DNA of 64,000 nucleotides, taken from contig JAACSN010000005.1 in assembly GCA_009993885.1 (NCBI GenBank), forward strand, positions 25,495-89,494. Reading direction: 5' to 3'. Shown here piece by piece: positions 2 through 45,964 of the stretch (position 1 is its first letter; the number at the start of each line of letters is the position of its first letter). Position numbers and translations under genes: made by a program. Source of the DNA: Alphaproteobacteria bacterium (GTDB lineage: Bacteria; Pseudomonadota; Alphaproteobacteria; Caedimonadales; UBA9215). The notes under the pieces are model-generated. The model was not told the origin of the DNA. It searched no databases and worked only from the letters and a program-made list of their open reading frames with translations.

Positions 2-1549
2 CAAGAGTTTTTTTCCAACGTTCTTTTACTCGATTCAAAGCATATGGACGCCCAGTTTGAATTGGCCACGGCCTCCTATCACTTGGGTGACCTTAAAACC
101 GCCGCCATGAGCATTGATCGCGTTATGACGGCTCAACCCGATGAAGCGCGCAATATACGCGCGGCAGCTCTCATTTACGCAGCCCTTGGCAGGAAAGAGC
201 AAGCTCAAATTTACCTTGCCAAATATAGTACGTTGCCCATTGGGAAGCGGCACAAGAAATACCTTGAGCGACGTGTACAAGATTGGGAAGATCTTCATAA
301 TTCGGGTCGCCTTGTTGCTCAAGCCGATACTGCGCCGGCAGCCGGGTCGGAAACAGCCCCTGCCCCTGCGGAAACAACTGCAGCCGAACCCGCCGCTGAA
401 ATCGCACCGGAGCCTGTGGCCCCCGCTCCTGCTCCAACGGTCACCCCCGTTGCAGAAGCCCCTAAAGCAGAGCAAGAAAACCAAGTTATCATTAAAGATT
501 TCCAAGAAGATATGATTGTGGTCGACGCTGTGATTATGCGGGTTTCGGAAGCAGGAAAAACATTCAAAGGTAACAATATCATGGAAACTTTCACCATGTC
601 GTTGTCTCCCTTTAACTATTTTAGGGCGCGAAATACTTCAGGTCCAATCGCGGCAGGTGCTCCTATTTTTCCCACAAACAACTCGTCCACATCCAGTAAC
701 ACCTCTCTTGGGGGAGCTGCTGATGCAGGTGAAGCTCTAAAAGGTGGCACAGCCAGCCTCATCACCCAAGGTATTTCCTTTGGAACCCTGAACTATTCCC
801 TTAATATCGCGAACTCCAGCGATGAAGTTGTTGAAATTATTGGACGCCCCACCCTAACCGCAACTGTCGGTAAAGCGGCAGACTTCTTCTCAGGTACAAA
901 TAAACACATTGCCCTTGCAGGCCAATTTGGCGGTAATATTACAGAAACACCTATCGGTACGGAATTAATTGTAACGCCTGTAGAATACAAAGACGGCTTT
1001 ATTACCCTGGACGTCGAACTCAGGGGAAGTAGTATTACCCAAGTGGTCGGAAGTATCATTGCCGATAATTCCACGGCCGTTGAATTTGATATTTTAAAGG
1101 ATCACGTTAAAACAACGGTCAAGGTCAAAGCCGGTGAAACGATAATGTTGGCCGGTATTACCCAACGCGAGCTTAAAACCAGCAAACAGGGTTTCCCCAT
1201 TTTGCAAAATATTCCGGTGATTCAGTACCTCTTTTCCGAAGAAATTTCCCTAAGCGATCGAAAGTCTGTGATGTACCTTTTAACACCGCGAAGTTACAGC
1301 AGAACCATTACGGAAACAAAGCGCTTTTTTGCGAAGGGTGAAGAATACGGTAAACGCCCGCGTCTTGATGAACTCGAAACACGACACAAGGATTGGTATG
1401 ATCCCAGCATCAATAACACACTGATTTTGCAACACCTTGCTCCTGTTTACGATGAATTTAGAACCGGCGACCTCCATGAAATCAAATGGGGTCATGATGA
1501 TGATGTTGCTAAGCAATTAACTTCCATTGCTAATTTCTTATGGTACTAG
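2..1549 (+). CDS. Secretin-family outer-membrane channel (type II secretion / type IV pilus type) with N-terminal TPR-like region; 5' end runs off the window
   Basis: The frame is open from nt 2, with no stop before the first Met at 44. The C-terminal half carries a secretin signature (GETIMLAGITQRELKTSKQGFPILQNIPVIQYLF...SVMYLLTPR). The N-terminus has TPR-like helices followed by a Pro/Ala-rich linker (APAAGSETAPAPAETTAAEPAAEIAPEPVAPAPAP). Confidence 0.75.
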   Translation, partial: QEFFSNVLLLDSKHMDAQFELATASYHLGDLKTAAMSIDRVMTAQPDEARNIRAAALIYAALGRKEQAQIYLAKYSTLPIGKRHKKYLERRVQDWEDLHNSGRLVAQADTAPAAGSETAPAPAETTAAEPAAEIAPEPVAPAPAPTVTPVAEAPKAEQENQVIIKDFQEDMIVVDAVIMRVSEAGKTFKGNNIMETFTMSLSPFNYFRARNTSGPIAAGAPIFPTNNSSTSSNTSLGGAADAGEALKGGTASLITQGISFGTLNYSLNIANSSDEVVEIIGRPTLTATVGKAADFFSGTNKHIALAGQFGGNITETPIGTELIVTPVEYKDGFITLDVELRGSSITQVVGSIIADNSTAVEFDILKDHVKTTVKVKAGETIMLAGITQRELKTSKQGFPILQNIPVIQYLFSEEISLSDRKSVMYLLTPRSYSRTITETKRFFAKGEEYGKRPRLDELETRHKDWYDPSINNTLILQHLAPVYDEFRTGDLHEIKWGHDDDVAKQLTSIANFLWY

Positions 1550-1570
1550 AGTATCAAAAGAACTCTAGAT

Positions 1571-1602
1571 AAAAAAAGAGAGGATAAATCCTCTCTTTTT
1601 TA
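1571..1602. terminator. Bidirectional rho-independent terminator between convergent genes
   Basis: Stem AGAGAGGA (1577-1584), loop TAAA, stem TCCTCTCT (1589-1596). An A-run lies on the left and a T-run on the right. It sits between the secretin stop (1549) and the stop of the minus-strand ORF (1617). Confidence 0.6.
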
Positions 1603-1616
1603 TTCAGATATCCCTG

Positions 1617-2090
1617 TTATTGCATAAAATCGGTAACACGATCTGCTAAGTCCGAATTCTTGGCGGCAATTAGACGTCTATGTGTCGGAGCAAGAAAACG
1701 GCTGTAAATCGTTATTTTTTGCATCTCAAGGTAATCTTCATCTAACGGATTGGAACCCCTCAAGCTGTTGTAAAAACAGTGAATATGCTCCGTTTCTTTT
1801 TCAACGGACAAGCGGCGCGCCGGCTTATCCGAATCTAAAGCTTCCTCATAGCCGTCATAAATTGCCGACCACCCGACTTTAAAATCATCCCACAGATCAT
1901 TATGAACCAAAGATTTAAACCCTTTTAGAAATTCTTCCAAAGAATAGGGAACGTCACGCATGGGAAAAACCTCGTCCACACTAGGTATCTTAACAAGGAC
2001 ATCCTCTACCTCTAAAACATTTTCAGATGACGACGCATTTGCAGACAAAGGACACATCAAGAGCATTACAGTAATTAGTATTTTTTTCAT
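1617..2090 (-). CDS. Hypothetical secreted protein (157 aa)
   Basis: The N-terminal signal peptide is MKKILITVMLLMCPLSANA. I recognise no conserved domain. Confidence 0.5.
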   Translation of the reverse strand: MKKILITVMLLMCPLSANASSSENVLEVEDVLVKIPSVDEVFPMRDVPYSLEEFLKGFKSLVHNDLWDDFKVGWSAIYDGYEEALDSDKPARRLSVEKETEHIHCFYNSLRGSNPLDEDYLEMQKITIYSRFLAPTHRRLIAAKNSDLADRVTDFMQ

Positions 2091-2189
2091 AGACTTAACC
2101 TCCTCGAGAGTTATTTTTTGAGCTTAATAACATTGCCTTTTAAAAACAAGCCTATATGATGAAAAGATAGCTTATACAGGGTTTTACTA

Positions 2190-2879
2190 ATGTCTCCGGT
2201 TCTCTTTTTTCGACACGTTGCAACGAAACGTCTCAAGGCATTCAGCCTTGTAGAACTTGCCATATCTCTTGTTATCATCGGTCTGCTCATTGGCGGGATT
2301 CTAAAGGGTCAGGAACTTCTTGAAAGCGCTCGCCTAAAAACCATTATGACTCAGCTGAACCAATATCGTCTAGCCGCAAATACCTTTGTTGATCGTTACG
2401 GAGCTCTTCCCGGGGATTATGATAAAGCCTCTTCGTACCTAAAAGCAGGTCTTAAAAACGGCAATAACAACGGCATGATTGAAGGCTTCGGCCTTTCCGC
2501 CTCCGGAGGCGCTTCCGGCCATGAAGCTCTCTCTTTTTGGGAGCACCTTGCCGCCGCGGAACTCCTCCCCAACAGTACACCGCCCTCCACCAAGTTAGGC
2601 GGCCTTGTGACCGTTGCCTATGCACCGCTCGACGGCATGCAAGGACATTGGTTTGTGATCGGGAATGCCAACGGCAGTAAAAATGACGGCGCTCTTTTAA
2701 CCCCTCTTCAATGTCTGACCATTGCTAAAAAACTGGATACGGAAGACCCTTTTTCCGGCAACGTCCAAATTAGGAACGGAGTTCAAAAAGGAGGAAAGGG
2801 CGGGCACTGCTTAAAAGATAATAAAATCTTGAATACGGCAACAAAAGATCCGGCTTGTGTCCTTTATGTTAAACTTTAG
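2190..2879 (+). CDS. Prepilin-type N-terminal cleavage/methylation domain protein (pilin or pseudopilin)
   Basis: The class III signal motif is KA|FSLVELAISLVIIGLLIGGIL, with Glu at +5 and a hydrophobic helix. The gene lies close to the secretin gene. Confidence 0.75.
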   Translation: MSPVLFFRHVATKRLKAFSLVELAISLVIIGLLIGGILKGQELLESARLKTIMTQLNQYRLAANTFVDRYGALPGDYDKASSYLKAGLKNGNNNGMIEGFGLSASGGASGHEALSFWEHLAAAELLPNSTPPSTKLGGLVTVAYAPLDGMQGHWFVIGNANGSKNDGALLTPLQCLTIAKKLDTEDPFSGNVQIRNGVQKGGKGGHCLKDNKILNTATKDPACVLYVKL

Positions 2880-3681
2880 AAAACATTTCCGCGCCCCTAA
2901 AATACAAGCTTTTTCTCTGATCGAGATGTCTCTTGTCTTAGCTATCATGGGAACCCTTGCCAGTCTCTCTTTGCCGATGCTTCTGGACTATAAAAGCACG
3001 CAAAAACGCCAACATACAACAAAACATATCGACCTTGTTTTATCGGCAACGGGGACTTTTGCCGCAGCACACCGTGTTCTTCCTTGCCCGGCTTCGAAAA
3101 CCTCTAGGGGGGAACCCGTTGTCTGCACAACCGAAACCCTTAATCTTGCCACAGGTTATGTCCCCTATAAAACCCTTGGTTTAAGTGAGGCCTCTAGCAA
3201 AGACGGCTTTGGCAATCCGTTGCGTTATGCCATAAACCCTCGGCTTTCTTCCCATGAAACTTTTTATGACAATACACATATATCGCCTCTAAAAGTTGTT
3301 GATAATGAGGAAAGAAGTGTTTTTGACCTTCAAAACGATAAAGATAAATTAGCGGTAGTTGTCTTGAGCGAAGGAGAAGCTTTTCGAACCCCCCAAAGCT
3401 CTTTTGAGCGTCGGAACACGGACGAAAGGCTGACTTTTGTAGAGGCTCCCTATTCCGTCAATAAAGAAAATCCCTTTCGCCACATTGTGCGCTGGAGCAC
3501 CCGTAATAATTTATTAACTTACTACGGAAAGTCTGCACCGCTTTCTCAACCGCAAAATGCTTTAGAAAATAATCAGGACGACAGGAGACTGCCCCGGATA
3601 GTGCCTCATGACAGGATTGTGCCCCCTCCTCGGAATCCGCTTCAAAACCCGTTAGGCGGGGATTTTGAGAGTATTTTTTAA
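2857..3681 (+). CDS. Prepilin-type N-terminal cleavage/methylation domain protein (second pseudopilin)
   Basis: The motif is QA|FSLIEMSLVLAIMGTLASLSL. The ORF-track start is GTG at 2857, and ATG at 2866 is an alternative. The gene overlaps the end of the preceding pilin gene. Confidence 0.7.
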   Translation: MSFMLNFRKHFRAPKIQAFSLIEMSLVLAIMGTLASLSLPMLLDYKSTQKRQHTTKHIDLVLSATGTFAAAHRVLPCPASKTSRGEPVVCTTETLNLATGYVPYKTLGLSEASSKDGFGNPLRYAINPRLSSHETFYDNTHISPLKVVDNEERSVFDLQNDKDKLAVVVLSEGEAFRTPQSSFERRNTDERLTFVEAPYSVNKENPFRHIVRWSTRNNLLTYYGKSAPLSQPQNALENNQDDRRLPRIVPHDRIVPPPRNPLQNPLGGDFESIF

Positions 3682-4904
3682 GACATTTTCGTTAGTTTTC
3701 CTAGGGTAATTTTAAGACGTTCGAGGGATTTCTCAAGGGTATTTCTGTCCGTTGCATAAGAAATCCTAAAATGGGGAGAACGTCCAAAAGCACTGCCCGG
3801 TACGGTCGCGACACCTGCTTCATCCAAAAGATAAGCACAGAAATCTTCATCGCTCTCGATATGATCTCCATGGGGTGTGGTTGCTCCCATATAGTCTGAA
3901 CAAGAGGGGTAAGCATAAAAAGTTCCATGGGGTACAAGGCACTGAAGACCGTCAATTTCGTTAAGCCCTGCAACCACAAAATCCCGTCTGTCTTGAAATT
4001 CTTGCACCCATTGTTTTAAGAAATCTTGAGGTCCTTCAAGGGCCGCAAGAGCCGCTGCCTGTGAAATAGAACACGCATTTGACGTGCTTTGAGATTGCAA
4101 AACGGACATAGCTTTAATAAGCCATAAAGGCCCTCCGGCATAACCGATGCGCCAACCGGTCATTGAATAAGACTTTGAAACACCATTCAACATTAAGGTA
4201 CGATCTTTAAGCTCTTTTTCTATATCCGCAAGGGCATGAAACTTATTGCCGTCAAACGTAATATGCTCATAAATATCATCACTCATAATTAAGACATGGG
4301 GGTGACGGCGAAGTACCTGAGCCAACTGCCACAACTCGTCATAACTATACATGGCTCCCGTCGGGTTAGAGGGAGAATTTAAAATAAACCATTTGGTTTT
4401 CGCCGTAATGGCCTTTTCCAATTGCTCGGGGGTGACTTTAAAGCCTTGGGATTGGGGACAAGACAGAAATACCGGCGTCCCTTCGGCAATTTCAACAATA
4501 TCGGGATAGGAAACCCAATAGGGGTCGGGAATGATAACTTCATCCCCCCTGTTGACCGTTGCCAAAATTGCATTGAAAATAATCTGCTTTCCGCCTGTTC
4601 CCACAATAATCTCATTAGGCGTATAATCCACATGATTATCTCGTGCAAATTTTGTCACAATAGCTTGGCGCAGCTCCGGTGTGCCGGCAACTGCCGTGTA
4701 CTTTGTTTGTCCGGCAGCCATAGCCTTTGTTGCAGCCTCACAAACCCACGGCGGCGTATCAAAATCAGGCTCTCCTGCCGTTAAAGACAAGATATCTTTA
4801 CCCAACGCCCGAAGTTCTGCCGCTTTTTGAGTCAGGGCAAGGGTCGGAGACGGTTTAATTGTTGCAAGGCGGTGAGCAATAAAAGGATGGGGGGCTGTCA
4901 TCAA
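3678..4904 (-). CDS. Aspartate aminotransferase (class I PLP-dependent aminotransferase)
   Basis: The full-length 408-aa product has the PLP-lysine region NGVSKSYSMTGWRIGY plus SPSNPTG and the typical AspAT N-terminus (IKPSPTLALTQKAAELRALGKDILSLTAGEPDFDTP). Confidence 0.9.
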   Translation of the reverse strand: MMTAPHPFIAHRLATIKPSPTLALTQKAAELRALGKDILSLTAGEPDFDTPPWVCEAATKAMAAGQTKYTAVAGTPELRQAIVTKFARDNHVDYTPNEIIVGTGGKQIIFNAILATVNRGDEVIIPDPYWVSYPDIVEIAEGTPVFLSCPQSQGFKVTPEQLEKAITAKTKWFILNSPSNPTGAMYSYDELWQLAQVLRRHPHVLIMSDDIYEHITFDGNKFHALADIEKELKDRTLMLNGVSKSYSMTGWRIGYAGGPLWLIKAMSVLQSQSTSNACSISQAAALAALEGPQDFLKQWVQEFQDRRDFVVAGLNEIDGLQCLVPHGTFYAYPSCSDYMGATTPHGDHIESDEDFCAYLLDEAGVATVPGSAFGRSPHFRISYATDRNTLEKSLERLKITLGKLTKMS

Positions 4905-5402: not shown

Positions 5403-5479
5403 TGGTCGGGGTGGAGAGATTCGAACTCCCGACATCCTGCTCCCAAAGCAGGCGCGCTACCAGGCTGCGCTACACCCCG
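5403..5479 (-). tRNA. tRNA-Pro (anticodon UGG), CCA encoded
   Basis: The reverse complement reads CGGGGTGTAGCGCAGCCTGGTAGCGCGCCTGCTTTGGGAGCAGGATGTCGGGAGTTCGAATCTCTCCACCCCGACCA. It folds by hand into a 77-nt cloverleaf with a 7-bp acceptor stem, D stem GCGC/GCGC, anticodon stem CCTGC/GCAGG, loop TTTGGGA and T-loop TTCGAAT. Confidence 0.93.
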
Positions 5480-6890: not shown

Positions 6891-7042
6891 AAAAAATGGG
6901 CCCCAACTTAATTCTTAAAACGCATATTACTCCAGTCTAACGCTTTTTATGCAAGATGCCAACTTATATGCGTCTTTTGGCAAAAATCCCTTTTTTCCTT
7001 GCAAAACCCCAAGGGGTTTGACATACTCCGTGAGCATTATGG

Positions 7043-7576
7043 GTGTTTTATAAAATGACTGAAAAAAGTAGATTCAAAAGCTTTGAAGAACTCACGGCGA
7101 AATCACGCAAGAGTACTGAAAAAACCCTAAAACCCCGCCGGGGCAGTCGTTATGAGCGCTACCGTGTCGCACGCTTGATGGCTGTGCAAGCTGCCTATGA
7201 AGCAAATCAAAACCGCCTTCCCTATCAGCGAGTTACAAAAAGTTTTCTTGAATTTCGCTTTAAAAATCACGACCACCCTATCATTCCCGACCGTGAACTT
7301 TTCCTCCACCTCATGAAGAGTCTTGAAACACGCAAAGATCAAATCGACGATATTCTCGAAAAAATCGTCGTCGGCACATGGACTCTTGAGGCCTTAGATG
7401 CCGTCTTAAAAAGCATTCTGACTGTTGGCATTGCGGAACTCCTTGATCCCTATAAAGATGCCCCAAAGCCCCTTTTGATTAGCGAATATGTTGAGGTGGG
7501 CAAAGGATTTTTTGATGATAAAGAAGCAGGATATATCAATAGGGCTCTGGATAGTGTCCTTAAAAAACTCTCCTAG
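7043..7576 (+). CDS. nusB: Transcription antitermination factor NusB
   Basis: RVARLMAVQAAYE...LDAVLKSILTVGIAELL...EYVEVGKGFFDDKEAGYINRALDSV is the typical NusB pattern. The start may be the Met at 7055. Confidence 0.85.
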   Translation: MFYKMTEKSRFKSFEELTAKSRKSTEKTLKPRRGSRYERYRVARLMAVQAAYEANQNRLPYQRVTKSFLEFRFKNHDHPIIPDRELFLHLMKSLETRKDQIDDILEKIVVGTWTLEALDAVLKSILTVGIAELLDPYKDAPKPLLISEYVEVGKGFFDDKEAGYINRALDSVLKKLS

Positions 7577-7674
7577 CTAGAAAAGCTCCCGCTTTCTTAA
7601 AGGAAATCGTATTAAAGGCTAGTCCTTCTTTTCCTTTTTATAGAAACTTTGAATGCAAAAAATCTCTGAAAAAT

Positions 7675-8256
7675 TCACGGTGTCCCCTTTTCACGAGCCG
7701 CTTTAAAGGCATTCCCGTACCAGCTAAGCTCTTTGATAAATTGGTTAGATTTTTTTGTAAGGGAGTCATCAAGGCTTTTCCCGTCTTCATCCAATTTATT
7801 CTGAATCATCCCGATACCGAAAATTGTCGGAATGGGGCTCATCCCAAAAATACAAAGGGTTGTTAACAGATGCATCGATACGCGCGCCCCACCCAAGGCT
7901 CCCATGGAATAGGTGACTAAACCGACGGGTTTGTGAAAAAATTCTATATAAAAATGATCCATTAAGTTCATCAGACCCGGTTGCATAGTGCCGTTGTATT
8001 CGCCGGAAACAATCACAAATACATCCGTCTTATTTTGCAATAAATCATGCAGCTCTTCCATTTCCCGCGGTGCCGTACCGGTTTCATAGTCAATATAGCG
8101 TTTTTTTAAAATCGGAAAATCATAAGCCATTGCATCCACAAAAGTAACAATATGTCCTTGAGACTTCAAAGCTTTTTGGAGATGCCTAACGGCTTTAATT
8201 CCTTGGCGGCCTTCTCGATAAGAGCCGTAAAGAAGAGTAATATGAAGAGCCGTCAT
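7675..8256 (-). CDS. NAD(P)H-dependent FMN reductase family oxidoreductase
   Basis: The flavodoxin-like N-terminus ITLLYGSYREGRQG and the SGEYNGTMQPGLMNLMDH pattern are typical of the FMN_red family. Confidence 0.75.
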   Translation of the reverse strand: MTALHITLLYGSYREGRQGIKAVRHLQKALKSQGHIVTFVDAMAYDFPILKKRYIDYETGTAPREMEELHDLLQNKTDVFVIVSGEYNGTMQPGLMNLMDHFYIEFFHKPVGLVTYSMGALGGARVSMHLLTTLCIFGMSPIPTIFGIGMIQNKLDEDGKSLDDSLTKKSNQFIKELSWYGNAFKAAREKGTP

Positions 8257-31288: not shown

Positions 31289-32236
31289 CTAAAAACTTAG
31301 GCCTCTTTGACGACGACGGTATAAAAGTGCCGTCGCACGAGGCAAGAGCACATCGCCGCGTAAATAGGTAACAAGAAGAAGCACACCTGCCATAAAAGGA
31401 GAGAGGACCTCGGCTTTCAACCAATTAGTTACAGCTATCTTTTGAAGTTTATTCAAAAAATCAGAGAACTTAAAGCCTTTTTGCAGAGTCGGTTCCGGTG
31501 TTTTAGGAGGTAAACAGACCTTAGAAAGCCTCGGGTATGCGGGCGATACGCCTTTATCAACCCTTATATCACTTTCGGCGATCCCCTTAAATGCGTTAAC
31601 CTTTGATGAGGGAAAAGCAGAAACAAAAGCAAAAGAGTCAAAGCTCATCCCCCCAAACATATTTCTATTTTCTTGGATGCCGTCCCCTCCTGAAGGAGAG
31701 GAAGGAAAAGAAAGTGCGTCCAACGGATCATCGTTTTCTTGTTCGACCCGATTGCAGCTCTCTTTAAAGTTAATTTGCGCCTCTTCTCCTATTGAAAAAG
31801 AGGTCAACAAAGTTGCCCTTGGTCTCATTTGAATAGGATCTTTATAAACCGGTGTTTCTCTTAAAACGGGCTCTTCTCTTTGCGTCCTTTGCTCTGCCTC
31901 CTGAGCGAGCGTTTGGGGTTCAAAGCCACAAACAACTTCTCCTAAATTATTAGCAACCAATTGCATTATGGATTCAAAACGGTTTTGCAAAACGCTATCA
32001 GCCTCGGGATGCAAACGTATCGTCCAATTGAGAGATGAAACGGTAGGCTCGATCTCCCGGGCAATTTGAATATTTGATTGCGATAAGTCAACCCTGACTG
32101 TGCAAAATAGTTTCATGGCTTCCAGCTCTATGAAGGGCTCGGCCATAGCAGCATGGGGCAAACTTGCTGTTCCGGTCATCGGGACGGCTAGCAGAGCGCC
32201 GGTGACAAGACCGAAAGATAAAGAGCGTTTTTTCAT
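31289..32236 (-). CDS. Hypothetical secreted/anchored protein (315 aa)
   Basis: It has a signal peptide (MKKRSLSFGLVTGALLAVPMTGTA) and a C-terminal hydrophobic segment (LSPFMAGVLLLVTYL) followed by a basic tail. I recognise no domain. Confidence 0.5.
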   Translation of the reverse strand: MKKRSLSFGLVTGALLAVPMTGTASLPHAAMAEPFIELEAMKLFCTVRVDLSQSNIQIAREIEPTVSSLNWTIRLHPEADSVLQNRFESIMQLVANNLGEVVCGFEPQTLAQEAEQRTQREEPVLRETPVYKDPIQMRPRATLLTSFSIGEEAQINFKESCNRVEQENDDPLDALSFPSSPSGGDGIQENRNMFGGMSFDSFAFVSAFPSSKVNAFKGIAESDIRVDKGVSPAYPRLSKVCLPPKTPEPTLQKGFKFSDFLNKLQKIAVTNWLKAEVLSPFMAGVLLLVTYLRGDVLLPRATALLYRRRQRGLSF

Positions 32237-40799: not shown

Positions 40800-41762
40800 A
40801 TGAGTACGTTAAAAACAAGAATGAAAAAAGAAATTAATCACATCACATCCGATGCCCTAGAGAGAGCGCAACAAACGCTTCGAAACGGTGACCTTATCGG
40901 ATTGCCGACAGAAACGGTTTACGGACTGGCGGCCAATGCCCTGAGCGACAAAGCTGTTGCAAAGATTTATACCTTAAAAGAGCGTCCCCGTTTCAATCCC
41001 CTTATTGCTCATTTTCCCAATGCCGCCGAGGCTCAAAAATATGTGCATTTTAATGAGTGGGCCAAAACACTTTCCGAGACTTTTTGGCCCGGCCCCCTCA
41101 CCCTGATTCTTAAAAAGAAAGAAGACTGCGGCATTTCTCTTCTCGCGACAGCAGGTCTTGATACCCTTGCCGTTCGAGTGCCTGCTCACCCGATTGCTCA
41201 ACTGCTTTTACAAGGCCTCGAGTTTCCCTTGGTTGCTCCCAGTGCGAACCCGTCGGAATCTTTAAGCCCGACAACAGCTCAACATGTTAAGCGTTCTTTT
41301 CCCGATCTCCTTGTCGTAGACGGAGGTTCCTGCACCGTCGGCCTTGAATCAACCATTGTAGATCTGACAGGAAACATTCCTGTTATTTTACGCCCGGGGC
41401 TCTTAACTAAAAATGATATTGAAAAAGCCCTTCTTCTTACCCTTGGCGATAAAGCTGAAAGCAACGTCATCAAAGCACCGGGGCAGCTTAAACGTCATTA
41501 TGCCCCCTCTATTCCCTTACGCCTTAATATAAAAAATCTTCATGAAGGTGAAGCGCTGTTGTCCTTTGGCCCTCACACTTTTACGGCTCGAAAGGAAATC
41601 AACTTAAGCCTCACTTGCAACCTTGAAGAAGCAGCAGGCAATCTTTTTGCAGCGTTAGCAGAGCTCGATTCTTCTCAATATAAGGGCATTGCCGTTATGC
41701 CTATTCCAAACGACGGCATTGGTCTTGCCGTTAATGATCGCCTGAACCGTGCTTCGGCTTAA
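40800..41762 (+). CDS. tsaC: L-threonylcarbamoyladenylate synthase (Sua5/YwlC/TsaC family, long form with Sua5 C-domain)
   Basis: GDLIGLPTETVYGLAANA, KERPRFNPLIAHF, PGPLTLIL, APSANPS and the C-terminal Sua5 domain are present. Confidence 0.88.
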   Translation: MSTLKTRMKKEINHITSDALERAQQTLRNGDLIGLPTETVYGLAANALSDKAVAKIYTLKERPRFNPLIAHFPNAAEAQKYVHFNEWAKTLSETFWPGPLTLILKKKEDCGISLLATAGLDTLAVRVPAHPIAQLLLQGLEFPLVAPSANPSESLSPTTAQHVKRSFPDLLVVDGGSCTVGLESTIVDLTGNIPVILRPGLLTKNDIEKALLLTLGDKAESNVIKAPGQLKRHYAPSIPLRLNIKNLHEGEALLSFGPHTFTARKEINLSLTCNLEEAAGNLFAALAELDSSQYKGIAVMPIPNDGIGLAVNDRLNRASA

Positions 41763-41769
41763 CACTCTT
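41707..41769. repeat. Direct repeat copy 1 (63 bp): last 18 codons of tsaC, the stop codon and 7 nt
   Basis: CAAACGACGGCATTGGTCTTGCCGTTAATGATCGCCTGAACCGTGCTTCGGCTTAACACTCTT is identical at all 63 positions to 43559-43621. The flanking bases differ on both sides. Confidence 0.95.
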
Positions 41770-41770
41770 A

Positions 41771-43459
41771 TCAAGAAACGCCTTTGGAAAGGCAACACGT
41801 TCTAAAAGCGTTTCGTAGAAAGTATTTCAACGTTTTCAAAGGAAATTCCTCCGAACCGGAGTGAGGAATATGAACCGTAAACCTTAGATAAGGATTACGC
41901 GCCCTTGTATCTGACAAATTTGGCAACCAATACCCAACAGCAGACCCCGGCTTGGGTTTGCTATCATATTTACCGTTGACGGCTTTCAAAAAAGAATCAA
42001 AATCGGTCTTAGAAACAGGTCTTGTACCCGCTCCTATAACGGCTTTATAAAATGCCTCGGCTTTCTCACCGAAATTAAATTTCGGAAGTGTATTACCAAC
42101 TGTAGCAGCAGAAAATTCAACAGAAGGTAAGGCCGCATCTTCTTCATTTCTTATATAGGCCGGAATAATGCGAGATACAACTTCTTCAAAATACCATTCG
42201 TCAAAATGAAACTCCGAAAGCGCTTCATCTCCTTCAAAAGCAGCGGCAACATTAGTTTCTTCTACCTTACTGCCTTCCTCTGCCACAACGACTTTTTCAA
42301 TAGTTTCAGCATCTATAACAACAAGGGGCATAATATCCGAATTCTTTATAATAGGTTCTCCCGCAGCTGATGCAGACTCTATAGAAACTCTATGGAGTGA
42401 TCTCCCTCTTTTTTGAGAGTTCTTTTTTTTTGCCTTACGTCTCGCTTTCTTTTTGCCTTTACTTTGATTTTCGGCCTTCATTTTAAGATTTTTGACTTCA
42501 GGTTTTGAGGGATTTTCTATAGAAACGAGATCTCCATAGCTTTCTAATAAAAATTCATGAATAAACGTGCCAATATTCCCTTCCATTTCTGAGAATTTAA
42601 ATTTTCCTCTCTCCAAAAAATTTGAGAACATGAGGTTACGATATTTCTCACTGATATTTGTGTGAATATTAAACATCTTGTGAGACCTAATATAGGTTCG
42701 AGCATGGGAAAATAGAAGGCTTTCTAAGGCAGACCATTCATAGGCTGATCTTTGGCCTTTAGGAGTTGGGAAAACAGACTCTAAAAGCACTATGATATTT
42801 ACGAATAACTTGGAACAAAAGAGATTATTCTCTCCTTCATATAGCTCTGATAAAAGAGCTTCTTCCTTATCACTTAGCCCGTGAAAAACATTAGGATAAG
42901 AAGAAACATCACCACTTGAAAGAACGTCGAACATTCTCTTCACCAAGGATCCTAAATCAGAATTTTCAAATTCTCTATCCTCCGATTTTAAATTACAGCA
43001 GTTATAGAAAGATCTAATCGCCCCCCTAAGAACAGCAGTGATGTCTTGTTTGACACGTCCGACCAGTTCTGCAGAAATTTCTTCATTTCGATGCTCAAAT
43101 AAAAGTTCCATGGAAGCATAAAGCCCCTCAGAAAAACAATAATCAGTAAAACGATCTTGCACCTGAAAGAAATAGAAAGGTAAATAAGAAGGGCAGTTGA
43201 AATCTCTATAGAAATCCACAGCAGACTGTGGAATGTCCGTCTTAATTTCTGAAACACGTACCGGGTCTATTTCCCCTTGTCGGGTATGTACGTCTAAATA
43301 CTCCAAGTGCGCTGCTGTCCAAGCGCGATACTCTTCTAACTCCTCCCATACTTTTGTAAGAACTTTAAGCTTAGACATATCATTATCATCAATCCTAGTC
43401 CCGTTAGAAAGACTTATAAAAAAACAAAAAGAAATGAGAAACCGAAATATAAATGACAT
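41771..43459 (-). CDS. Hypothetical secreted protein (562 aa) with NLS-like basic cluster and HicA/YcfA-like C-terminal region
   Basis: The signal peptide is MSFIFRFLISFCFFISLSNG. The basic cluster KGKKKARRKAKKKNSQKRGR spans residues 334-353. The C-terminus DFDSFLKAVNGKYDSKPKPGSAVGY...LRFTVHIPHSGSEEFPLKTLKYFLRNAF resembles the HicA fold pattern as I recall it. The gene is visibly more AT-rich than its neighbours. Confidence 0.6.
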   Translation of the reverse strand: MSFIFRFLISFCFFISLSNGTRIDDNDMSKLKVLTKVWEELEEYRAWTAAHLEYLDVHTRQGEIDPVRVSEIKTDIPQSAVDFYRDFNCPSYLPFYFFQVQDRFTDYCFSEGLYASMELLFEHRNEEISAELVGRVKQDITAVLRGAIRSFYNCCNLKSEDREFENSDLGSLVKRMFDVLSSGDVSSYPNVFHGLSDKEEALLSELYEGENNLFCSKLFVNIIVLLESVFPTPKGQRSAYEWSALESLLFSHARTYIRSHKMFNIHTNISEKYRNLMFSNFLERGKFKFSEMEGNIGTFIHEFLLESYGDLVSIENPSKPEVKNLKMKAENQSKGKKKARRKAKKKNSQKRGRSLHRVSIESASAAGEPIIKNSDIMPLVVIDAETIEKVVVAEEGSKVEETNVAAAFEGDEALSEFHFDEWYFEEVVSRIIPAYIRNEEDAALPSVEFSAATVGNTLPKFNFGEKAEAFYKAVIGAGTRPVSKTDFDSFLKAVNGKYDSKPKPGSAVGYWLPNLSDTRARNPYLRFTVHIPHSGSEEFPLKTLKYFLRNAFRTCCLSKGVS

Positions 43460-43558
43460 AACAAAAATCCATATACTAAATATTTAAAATATTTAAAATA
43501 TATATAACATTATAAAAAATAAATAAAGAAAATAATTTATTTTATTTTATAATTGCTT

Positions 43559-43621
43559 CAAACGACGGCATTGGTCTTGCCGTTAATGATCGCCTGAACC
43601 GTGCTTCGGCTTAACACTCTT
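43559..43621. repeat. Direct repeat copy 2 (63 bp), an orphan tsaC 3' fragment in an AT-rich intergenic region
   Basis: It is identical to 41707-41769. The upstream flank is non-coding, very AT-rich sequence. Confidence 0.95.
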
Positions 43622-43675
43622 TAGAACCTTCCTTATCCCCTCTCAAAATAAAAAATACAATATAAAATCATCAAA

Positions 43676-43690
43676 TTAATATTTTTTTAA
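43676..43690. promoter_or_regulatory. TTAA-N7-TTAAC motif (full CtrA-box consensus) upstream of the nucleotidyltransferase gene
   Basis: TTAATATTTTTTTAA is followed by C and lies 49-63 nt upstream of the ATG at 43739. Confidence 0.35.
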
Positions 43691-43738
43691 CAAAAAGAAT
43701 GTAATTTTAAATTGAATAATAACTTAAAAGGTGTATTT

Positions 43739-45964
43739 ATGTTTCGTTATTTATGTTTAACCTCAGCTTTTTCATTAATTACTTCAAGTGTTGCCTTGGC
43801 TGAAATGCCAACGGAAGACTCGATATTTACAGAACCCCAAAGCACTCAAAAGACAGAGCGGGGAAAAATAACGCCGGAACGTCTTGAAAATCTACAAAAA
43901 CTCATGAACAAAGGAAGCGAAGCTCCTGCCCCCAAAGAACATGAACCCGTTGGTAAACTTTCGAAAGAACGTATAGAGGTTTTTGGAGAATCCGTTTTAA
44001 AAGAACAGGGTGAGGCCATAAAAAAAGAGACTGTTTCCAAGACCGTTGAAACACCAAAAGCAGATACGGAAAATGAAGGAATAGTCTCGTCAAAGACAGG
44101 TCAAAAATCGATAGAATTAACACAAGAACAAGAAAAAGCAATGAGGGGAAAGTCAGGACACTCCTATTTTGAGGAATTGACTCACGATCTCTACACGTCT
44201 CCTCTAGGGAAATGGCTTTCTGATGTTTATGGTGCGTCACGTGAGGAAATAACACGCTGGTTCAGTGAAACCGAGGCCGATCGCTATGGCTTAAAACGCT
44301 TACGTGATAATGCCATTGACGAATATGATTACGAAGTGCGAAAAGCAGCCCCTCAATACAACCAAATCACTAAAGACATTTCTGACGAAAACATTAAATG
44401 GGTTGGGAAGATCATAGACAGTATTGTAAAGGATCTTGGTGTGGAAACACCTCCGGGATTTAGTATCTTTACCATGGGCTCCCTTGCACGGGGCGAAAGC
44501 GGTTTCTACACGGATCTCGAGATTGGCTTTTTAGTTAATGACGATGCCATGACACCTGAAAATATGAAAACACTTCTTTTAATTGCGAATTCTTTAAACC
44601 AACGCCTTTTCTTCCTAGGGGAACACCCCGACTACGGCGGCTACGGTATGCGTCTTGATGAAGCTGCCAATGCCCCGTTATACCTCAGGTTTGGATATGA
44701 TAAGTTGACACCGGAAGAAGCTAGAAAACAAATGGTTTCTGCTCTAACCAATTATGATTTCGAAAAAATCCCTTGGGGGGGAAGCCGTCTCTTTATTTCA
44801 ACACCATCGAAATTGGCGGCACACTCAGATCCTGACTACATAGAAAAAGCAGATAGTGAAGATGCCTATCTCAATGGTCAAAAACGCAAGAAAATGATTG
44901 AGGATGAGTACAAGAAAGCACGCTCCGACCCTAAGAATGCAGGAATCTCGAATACACAGTTAAAAGAAGGTATTCGCTATTTAGTGGATCTCATCGAAAA
45001 ACCTCTTGGGGTAAAGGATCGCCGCGAATCCAACAACATTGTTGTTTTAGGTCGCAATATGATGAATATTTACGGTGAGCAAGAAACCTTTGACACTTTT
45101 ATAAAGGCCAGAGAACCCTTTTTATCCGGAACGGCAAAAGATAACGCTGATCGCTATGTCTCTCGTCGCCACGAGCTTGCAATGGAAACAATGAAAGAAG
45201 ATATTATAAAACGTGGCGGAGACCCTTCAAGCATCTTCCTTACAGGGAAGTTGGGAGACAAGGTCGACATTAAACGCGAACTCTACCGTTTTAGCGAACA
45301 GTTTGTAACAAACCTAGGATTTTATTTTGATATCAAAACACAAAATACAATAGACATTGTTGGCGAACTGATGGAACAAGGCATTATTTCCCAAGAAATT
45401 GGAGAAAAACTTCAAGACTACATGAACTTTATGGTCGGATTGCGCCTTAAACAACAACGGGTTTTAAGTTCACAAGCACATGCCGTGTACCTAAATGAAG
45501 AAGCCTTTCAAAAAGATATTAGAAAGCTGCAAGAAGAGAATTCTGCCCTTGAGAAAAATCTAGCTTTCTTAGAAGAGAGTCAATCTTCAAAAAAAGCTCT
45601 GACGGACGCAAGAAAAGCCGTAACAGACAAAAAACATGAAATTGACGAACTTAAAAAAATGGCACCCGGTAAGATCGTGTCAACGGAAGAAATTGATATA
45701 CTCAATACAAAATACCTTCCTTTTGCTATAGAGCTTTTCCAACTGTCAAAGGATTGGATTTCAGGAAAAGACAATGCCCTTGGCGGCAAAGGTGCAGCAA
45801 TCGGCATTAAAGCCATCGCGCCTTCTCTCCCTACCTCGGAGGGGACAGATACTGAGGGTTCTTCTTCCGAAAAGAAGCTTCCCCTAATAGAAAGGCCGAA
45901 TTTGCCCGGCCCGGGAATCATTCCTTCAGAAACTGAAAGTGCTACGGCAGCCCCGGCAGCCTAA
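43739..45964 (+). CDS. Signal-peptide protein with DUF294-type nucleotidyltransferase core and DUF294_C-like helical domain plus C-terminal coiled coil
   Basis: The signal peptide is MFRYLCLTSAFSLITSSVALA. The NTase motif is FTMGSLARGESGFYTDLEIGFLV (GS-x10-D-x-E), followed by GEHPDYGGYGMRLDEAANAP. The later segment DIKRELYRFSEQFVTNLGFYFDIKTQNTIDIVGELMEQGIISQEIGEKLQDYMNFMVGLRLKQQ resembles the DUF294 substrate-binding domain. The ORF track starts at TTG 43712; the ATG at 43739 is preferred. Confidence 0.65.
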   Translation: MFRYLCLTSAFSLITSSVALAEMPTEDSIFTEPQSTQKTERGKITPERLENLQKLMNKGSEAPAPKEHEPVGKLSKERIEVFGESVLKEQGEAIKKETVSKTVETPKADTENEGIVSSKTGQKSIELTQEQEKAMRGKSGHSYFEELTHDLYTSPLGKWLSDVYGASREEITRWFSETEADRYGLKRLRDNAIDEYDYEVRKAAPQYNQITKDISDENIKWVGKIIDSIVKDLGVETPPGFSIFTMGSLARGESGFYTDLEIGFLVNDDAMTPENMKTLLLIANSLNQRLFFLGEHPDYGGYGMRLDEAANAPLYLRFGYDKLTPEEARKQMVSALTNYDFEKIPWGGSRLFISTPSKLAAHSDPDYIEKADSEDAYLNGQKRKKMIEDEYKKARSDPKNAGISNTQLKEGIRYLVDLIEKPLGVKDRRESNNIVVLGRNMMNIYGEQETFDTFIKAREPFLSGTAKDNADRYVSRRHELAMETMKEDIIKRGGDPSSIFLTGKLGDKVDIKRELYRFSEQFVTNLGFYFDIKTQNTIDIVGELMEQGIISQEIGEKLQDYMNFMVGLRLKQQRVLSSQAHAVYLNEEAFQKDIRKLQEENSALEKNLAFLEESQSSKKALTDARKAVTDKKHEIDELKKMAPGKIVSTEEIDILNTKYLPFAIELFQLSKDWISGKDNALGGKGAAIGIKAIAPSLPTSEGTDTEGSSSEKKLPLIERPNLPGPGIIPSETESATAAPAA

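Follow-up and report, generated by a model that had tools for sequence, protein, structure and literature searches.

We deal here with a 63-bp sequence, CAAACGACGGCATTGGTCTTGCCGTTAATGATCGCCTGAACCGTGCTTCGGCTTAACACTCTT, that occurs twice, as identical copies in direct orientation, in a 64-kb stretch of alphaproteobacterial DNA (64,000 nt, hereafter the window). One copy, R1 (41707-41769), is formed by the 3' end of the gene tsaC, and the other, R2 (43559-43621), lies between two divergent genes. The 1,789 bp that separate them (41770-43558) consist of one minus-strand open reading frame (ORF) of 562 aa, ORF562, and a 99-nt AT-rich spacer, s1, which agrees with the preliminary description of this DNA. 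The wider gene order is prmC-uvrB-tsaC-ORF562(-)-DUF294-like gene(+)-rpsA(-)-cmk, and the features of the locus are the following.

40800-41762, plus strand: tsaC, encoding a Sua5-type L-threonylcarbamoyladenylate synthase of 320 aa; its last 53 coding nt and its stop codon are inside R1.
41707-41769, plus strand: R1, the tsaC 3' end with its TAA stop and 7 nt; exact repeat.
41713-41731, second occurrence at 43565-43583: perfect 6-bp inverted repeat with a 7-nt spacer (ACGGCA TTGGTCT TGCCGT), inside R1.
41771-43459, minus strand: ORF562, an orphan predicted secreted protein of 562 aa (the NCBI start is at 43378, giving 535 aa).
41774-42097, minus strand: C-terminal domain of ORF562, 108 aa, predicted with a pLDDT of 92 and a pTM of 0.85.
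43460-43558, no strand: s1, the AT-rich spacer upstream of ORF562, holding a 9-nt tandem repeat and a TATAAT.
43478-43517, no strand: the 9-nt tandem repeat AAATATTTA, 4.3 copies, within s1, the promoter spacer of ORF562.
43548-43553, plus strand: perfect TATAAT, 5 nt upstream of R2.
43559-43621, plus strand: R2, a non-coding copy of the tsaC end inside the divergent promoter spacer; exact repeat.
43622-43738, no strand: s2, a 117-nt spacer that separates R2 from the right-hand gene's start; in contig L016, described below, its first 63 nt come straight after the lone repeat copy.
43739-45964, plus strand: the right-hand gene, DUF294-like, 741 aa with a Sec-type signal peptide, divergent from ORF562.

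We scanned the window for the 63-mer, allowing up to 3 mismatches, and obtained two matches and no third, while shuffled controls gave 0/100; a repeat search over the same 64 kb revealed no other repeat of comparable quality. The identity ends sharply on both sides (on the left, C at 41706 versus T at 43558; on the right, A at 41770 versus T at 43622). Thus, the window match and the shuffles bear out the exact duplication with abrupt limits from which the preliminary description had started. The repeat contains 2 nt of the Pro302 codon (from its second base), 17 full codons, the TAA stop and 7 nt. The tsaC product matches the Pfam families Sua5_yciO_yrdC (1.1e-53) and Sua5_C (2.7e-20), as well as TIGR00057 (170 bits versus a cut-off of 123). 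tsaC and ORF562 are convergent, with 8 nt between their stop codons, and the ORF562 stop lies 1 nt from R1. R2, which is preceded by an AT-rich stretch, falls outside every listed ORF; the GC content around 43350-43800 is 0.26-0.27.

A second copy of this kind could be an assembly artefact, a concern that the preliminary description had itself voiced: the assemblies were built from short metagenomic reads, and a single clone supplies most of the contigs that show the structure. Both copies, at a distance of 1,852 nt, were recovered in five more contigs (three JGI samples, one ENA sample), which form one clone with the window (99.98-100% identity). The samples containing the main clone include JGI 3300008007, 3300025035 and 3300025845, and ENA ERZ27293355. 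However, JGI and ENA assemblies produced by different assemblers show the same structure. Moreover, the junction between copy 1 and ORF562 is also present in a strain of about 97% identity, S97 (L015, L019), and the arrangement of spacer, copy 2 and flank is also present in another diverged strain, S90 (L007, L008). Because both junctions recur in diverged strains, with strain-specific substitutions, an artefact is so unlikely that we give it almost no weight. The close strains and their alleles are as follows.

Main clone (L001-L004, L018): 99.98-100% identical to the window; ORF562 present, R1 identical to R2.
S97 (L015, L019, L020): 97.8% identical over 3.8 kb of prmC-uvrB-tsaC; tsaC-R1-ORF562 junction present; R2 region not recovered.
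S94 (L016): 94.1% identical over the same 3.8 kb of prmC-uvrB-tsaC; tsaC, a single repeat and s2; ORF562 absent.
S90 (L007, L008): 96.4% identical in the 5' part of the DUF294-like gene; ORF562-s1-R2-s2-DUF294-like gene, with a nonsense codon in ORF562; R1 not recovered.

S97 and the main clone group together with S94 outside them, and the distance of S90 from the main clone is about that of S97. Across these close strains, ORF562 is found in three states, i.e., intact, interrupted by a nonsense codon, or absent. The S97 copy of R1 (L015, L019) carries one substitution. Contig ends set the limits of these alleles: L015 and L019 end inside or just past the 3' end of ORF562, and L020 begins 21 nt after R2. 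A diverged strain with both repeat copies was sought, and none was found among the fetched contigs. The two S90 contigs, L007 and L008, end at the same nucleotide (equivalent to window 41768), 2 nt into R1, and come from different ENA assemblies (ERZ17912254, ERZ27293362) and different assemblers. A 63-bp repeat would not ordinarily break a de Bruijn assembly at this position; the two assemblies may derive from the same low-coverage reads.

The comparison of S90 with the main clone shows how ORF562 itself evolves. Inside the ORF (42468-43267), the two differ by 15-38 mismatches per 100 nt, whereas the ends of ORF562, both repeats and the flanks differ by 1-9 mismatches per 100 nt. In the hypervariable stretch, the indels between S90 and the window are all multiples of 3, and an in-frame stop (..EISAELA*RVKQ..) is present in both S90 contigs. 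We considered a cassette swap bounded by the repeats and rejected it, the divergence between S90 and the window being at its maximum inside ORF562 and not at the repeat boundaries. ORF562 is decaying by ordinary routes. Upstream of it, S90 has one AAATATTTA unit fewer than the window, and a changed unit number could alter the promoter geometry of ORF562.

The preliminary description had called for a search for empty sites in relatives, and there is one. Contig L016 of S94 (CAJDWK010000081.1, from GCA_903984335.1) carries tsaC, one repeat copy and the first 63 nt of s2; it was the sole match in a metagenome-wide scan for this pattern. GCA_903984335.1 may be part of StratFreshDB, for which MEGAHIT was reportedly used on 2x150 reads. 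The s2 segment of L016 has substitutions of its own, so that a chimera with main-clone sequence does not explain this contig. This single-copy allele is equally the product expected from a deletion between the repeats. Among main-clone contigs, those with an exact TsaC (about 44) and those with an exact ORF562 (about 45) agree in number, and no ORF562-less variant was seen at assembly level among the approximately 44 main-clone contigs. The right end of L016 is peculiar in its own way. At 3963-4059, s2 is broken after 63 nt by 97 nt of palindrome-rich novel sequence, and the contig ends there. This tail has two hairpins, CCTCCAGC..GCTGGAGG and CGCTTC..GAAGCG, and gave no match among the fetched loci, no transfer RNA (tRNA) and no Rfam family; it may be a repeat resembling a repetitive extragenic palindrome (REP), a miniature inverted-repeat transposable element (MITE) or an insertion sequence (IS).

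Deeper relatives date the association between ORF562 and its right-hand neighbour. In L009, whose TsaC is 78% identical to that of the window, the order is tsaC-orf238(+)-orf128(-)-ORF533(-)-175-nt AT spacer-start of a DUF294-like orthologue(+). ORF533 is the ORF562 orthologue (39% protein identity), and it stands head-to-head with the N-terminus of an orthologue of the same right-hand neighbour as in the window. The L009 region, its 175-nt spacer included, lacks any further copy of the tsaC end, and the linkage of ORF562 to its neighbour is therefore older than the repeat. L011 (TsaC 74% identical) has the order uvrB-orf294(-)-tsaC-orf238(+)-rpsA(-), with neither ORF562 nor the DUF294-like gene. 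In a more distant genome, L021, a protein of the ORF562 family (P0134) is encoded convergently with uvrB and has no flanking repeats. These loci point to a long residence of ORF562-family genes in this neighbourhood.

Several other observations concern the same interval. Orphan genes are concentrated, in this clade, in the interval from uvrB through tsaC to rpsA, a hotspot whose tsaC-rpsA part differs in its orphan genes from relative to relative. We examined orf294 of L011 as a possible member of the ORF562 family and rejected it (hhalign probability 0.1%); the 294-aa ORFs of L021 and L011 are mutually unrelated. In L011, the ORF between uvrB and tsaC (6946-7830, minus strand) has a product with a signal peptide and a weak match of the F-box type. 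orf238 (9035-9751 in L009, 9005-9721 in L011) is 81% identical between the two genomes, which is above TsaC conservation, and is absent from the window. Reference genomes cover this organism poorly: the closest TsaC among 185,579 GTDB species representatives is 51% identical and belongs to a Rickettsiales metagenome-assembled genome.

The age of R2 can be approached through the strains. In S90, R2 differs from the main-clone repeat by 4 of 63 positions, which is similar to the divergence of the surrounding non-coding DNA. R2 is hence at least as old as that strain split, and not very recent. The identity of the two copies had been ascribed in the preliminary description to a recent event or to ongoing homogenisation. 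The first of these does not hold, given the S90 substitutions and the linkage seen in L009, which predates the repeat. The second is faintly suggested by one informative site. At position 44 of the repeat, where an Arg codon has its third base, L009, L011, S94 and copy 1 of S97 have C, while both main-clone copies and copy 2 of S90 have T. The simplest account, on which we lean only lightly, is that R2 carried the T early and that the main-clone R1 may have gained it by conversion.

Putting these observations together, we favour the following reading, to which we give a probability of about 0.5: R2 would be a relic or ectopic copy made by local duplication, S94 would have undergone a deletion by recombination, and conversion would keep the main-clone copies identical. 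A local duplication or rearrangement would have deposited the 63 bp of the tsaC terminus in the spacer that holds the divergent promoters of two old, vertically inherited, secreted effector-like genes. One way to produce such a relic would be a tandem duplication of a unit containing tsaC, followed by the loss of the redundant copies, so that only the last 63 bp of the second tsaC remain; the right end of the repeat would then be the duplication junction and its left end a deletion endpoint. This origin would fit both boundaries most economically. The alternative, a templated insertion of 63 bp, would need fewer events and would leave the boundary coincidence unexplained. As the copies are direct and identical, both deletion and conversion are possible between them. 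Recombination between R1 and R2 would remove ORF562 and s1 (1,852 bp) and leave tsaC intact, which corresponds to the S94 allele, and conversion of one copy to the other would account for the identity in the main clone despite the divergence of R2 in S90. As a relic should be, R2 is a copy from the adjacent gene, direct, nearby and non-coding, and the L016 deletion allele keeps exactly one copy and both outer flanks. ORF562 is thus probably an old inhabitant of this locus, open to loss when R1 recombines with R2, and not a mobile element that arrived lately.

Several points weigh against this reading. No tsaC-like sequence beyond the 63 bp was found in s1 or s2, and no intermediate genome with a longer second copy of tsaC was found. 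The right end of the repeat falls in the 8-nt gap between the convergent stops, as a model with attachment (att) sites predicts; a random templated insertion would reach this gap only by luck, and tandem duplication with loss, which does predict the position, takes three events. Because S94 is the outgroup, within-species parsimony is silent on whether the empty or the filled state came first, and it is a single genome, L009, that supplies the polarity. The TsaC identities among the window, L009 and L011 (78, 74 and 75%) amount to a near-trichotomy. s1 and s2 have no significant homology to the L009 spacer, with scores no better than shuffles, and the same is true of their comparison with the tsaC downstream flanks of L009 and L011; the insertion point can therefore not be placed in the ancestral spacer. 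Finally, gene conversion draws its support from the single informative site at position 44.

The preliminary description had interpreted the structure as the attL/attR pair of an integrated element. Its direct-repeat topology, the completion of tsaC and the empty site have stood, but the old linkage of ORF562 to its neighbour and the lack of foreign cargo and of a recombinase speak against it. According to this explanation, the segment would be a minimal integrase-less cassette, made of ORF562 and its promoter, which would have the tsaC 3' end as its target and be moved by a recombinase of the tyrosine or serine type encoded at another place in the genome, or else the stripped remnant of an island, similar to a cis-mobilizable element (CIME). 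The topology with its restored tsaC reading frame, the exact coincidence of the repeat end with the gene boundary, 1 nt away from the stop of ORF562, and the empty-site allele in the outgroup strain S94 would all follow from it, and the perfect 6-7-6 inverted repeat resembles a recombinase core site. This inverted repeat is, however, expected by chance about once per ten such segments by our own estimate, its DNA fold is not exceptional (z = -1.46), and the tsaC genes of L009 and L011 have a weaker form of the palindrome. Nor does the R1 side leave space for arm sites.

The search for mobility genes leads in the same direction. No recombinase was seen in the window (ORFs of at least 150 aa, with N-termini read, and Pfam scans of the orphan ORFs). 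The same 64 kb contain no transposase, the segment ends have no inverted repeats, and the duplication is 63 bp long, as against 2-14 bp for a target-site duplication. The sole tRNA of the window is a tRNA-Pro (5403-5479), far from the repeats. The earlier remark that no integrase, transposase or tRNA is associated with the segment is thus upheld for this window. Integron features are lacking as well: the window has no intI, no attI, no cassette array and no further copy of the repeat, and paired core sites of the attC type (GTTRRRY) were not seen on reading the repeat. The other cassette copies that the preliminary description had suggested looking for did not turn up either. ORF562 is single-copy, its chromosomal context does not change from one recovered contig to the next, and searches of IMG/VR and of the plasmid and phage collections gave no match to it. 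To this must be added that its adjacency to the neighbour is older than the repeat, that none of the approximately 44 main-clone contigs is empty, and that the divergence profile between strains is not that of a cassette. We consequently hold an attL/attR origin of the repeats to be unlikely. A more specific version, in which a 1.85-kb single-gene effector cassette would use the 63-bp tsaC terminus as its recombination site and be excised and re-inserted by an unlinked recombinase, appears to us more doubtful still.

The same topology could also be obtained without a dedicated recombinase, by an insertion of the Campbell type. A circle made of the repeat, ORF562 and s1, coming from a sibling strain, would enter an S94-like chromosome (tsaC-repeat-s2), and a single RecA crossover in the tsaC end would duplicate the 63 bp. 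Filled and empty alleles are both present in the species, and the tsaC-rpsA interval varies in gene content between relatives, as this scenario would have it. However, it needs several prior events, i.e., a donor with tsaC fused to ORF562, an illegitimate circle ending exactly at the start of the repeat and at the end of s1, and a transfer, and the return of ORF562 beside its ancestral neighbour would be due to chance. Moreover, 63 bp is short for RecA, being near the lower limit of efficient RecA recombination. This scenario is, in our opinion, improbable.

R2 could also have been recruited as a regulatory element that couples the two divergent genes, or tsaC, post-transcriptionally. A transcript of the right-hand gene starting from the TATAAT at 43548-43553, a perfect match 5 nt before R2, would carry the whole of R2 in its 5' leader, and R2 would be perfectly complementary to an ORF562 mRNA reading through, antisense, into R1. 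The stops of tsaC and ORF562, 8 nt apart, leave no room for a terminator between them, and R2 is kept in two diverged strains. Nevertheless, no -35 match accompanies the TATAAT, a hexamer that is common in such AT-rich DNA, the divergence of R2 in S90 (4/63) is close to the neutral rate, and S94 is without this arrangement. We regard such a regulatory role as a long shot.

The protein encoded between the repeats is an orphan. ORF562 has no Pfam or NCBIfam family match; a word-indexed search returned its own cluster and the S90 allele only, and an exhaustive HMMER search over 1.84 billion representatives returned 19 proteins. The family has a common layout: the N-terminus is hydrophobic and resembles a signal peptide, and it is followed by a helical domain, by a disordered linker that is first lysine-rich and then acidic, and by a conserved C-terminal domain. 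In this last domain, which also exists as a stand-alone protein of 142-175 aa (L022), P59, H76 and H79 are invariant in 17 family members. A Foldseek search of its model against the PDB gave nothing with an E-value below 0.5. From the motif GS..Y.LPN...VH.PH we had suspected a HicA-like domain, and we rejected this candidate, which has neither a Pfam nor a Foldseek match. A profile search of PDB sequences returned only the lysine-rich tails of Nop56, and the lysine-rich stretch of ORF562 resembles the tails of eukaryotic nucleolar proteins.

The right-hand neighbour, with its 741 aa, has matches to the DUF294/DUF294_C nucleotidyltransferase families. A further match, to the N-terminal domain of Legionella SidM/DrrA (SidM_N), is below threshold (E = 1.8e-4, 21 bits versus a cut-off of 27), and this protein is possibly a secreted nucleotidyl-transferring effector. 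Because of the resemblance of its lysine-rich stretch and of this SidM_N-like neighbour, ORF562 too would be a candidate secreted effector of a host-associated bacterium, a suggestion drawn from sequence features.

Other parts of the window also hold genes related to secretion. At 44-3681, a secretin (PF00263) with tetratricopeptide repeats (TPR) is followed by two prepilin-like ORFs, pointing to a putative type II secretion or type IV pilus module. Further ORFs with a signal peptide and without a family match are found at 1617-2090, 26296-27981 and 31289-32236.

Comparison with known systems helps to situate the locus. The CIMEs related to ICESt1, an integrative and conjugative element (ICE), at fda of Streptococcus thermophilus, which Pavlovic et al. 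are said to have described in 2004, are reportedly decayed islands with att sites at a gene 3' end. As in these elements, the segment studied here lies between direct repeats, one of which completes the target gene, it encodes no integrase, and a single-copy allele exists in a relative. Unlike them, it has no cognate element or recombinase among what we found, it holds one gene with a stop 1 nt from the repeat, and the linkage of this gene to its neighbour predates the repeat. Integron cassettes are similar in that a single ORF is tightly bounded by a sequence resembling a recombination site, on which a recombinase would act in trans; they differ from this locus, where intI, attI and an array are missing, attC core sites were not seen and the repeat is a gene terminus. 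Tandem duplication with random loss, reportedly proposed by Moritz in 1987 and Boore in 2000, is said to be the classic model for changes of gene order in organelle genomes and for gene-fragment relics. It shares with our locus the short 3' gene fragment near an intact copy, and it can explain both repeat ends; on the contrary, an intermediate with two tsaC genes was not observed here, and the relic is 100% identical to its source, which needs either a recent origin or gene conversion.

Short direct repeats undergo deletion and gene conversion, in a RecA-dependent manner or by slipped-strand events. Here, the two identical 63-bp direct repeats are 1.85 kb apart and the S94 allele is the exact product expected from such a deletion, but the deletion is seen between strains only and not as a polymorphism of the main clone. 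In the minimal mobile elements of Neisseria, attributed to Saunders and Snyder (2002), alternative cassettes between conserved genes are reportedly exchanged by homologous recombination. The tsaC-rpsA interval, with its varying orphan genes and no mobility genes, is comparable to them; the difference is that those elements are not known to have flanking direct repeats. In conclusion, this locus functions like repeat-flanked deletable segments and its anatomy resembles that of CIMEs, while it is missing two of the things that define an integrative element, i.e., a recombinase and foreign cargo. The structure is of a known kind, of which this instance is a new example.

If the segment were a cassette, we would be dealing with a single-gene element of unusually small size that is moved in trans and targets a protein-coding gene. 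It would then form a minimal, integron-like effector switch, by which the essential tsaC is never damaged, in an uncultured and probably host-associated alphaproteobacterium. Whatever the origin of the repeats, ORF562 points to a small uncharacterised family of secreted proteins, whose C-terminal domain is confidently predicted and matches no solved structure. If, as we favour, R2 comes from a local duplication, a perfect 3'-end duplication resembling an attL/attR pair can arise without any mobile element, and such duplications should not be scored as islands before a deeper synteny check. In this bacterium, a short gene-fragment relic would then be what renders the neighbouring effector-like gene cleanly deletable.

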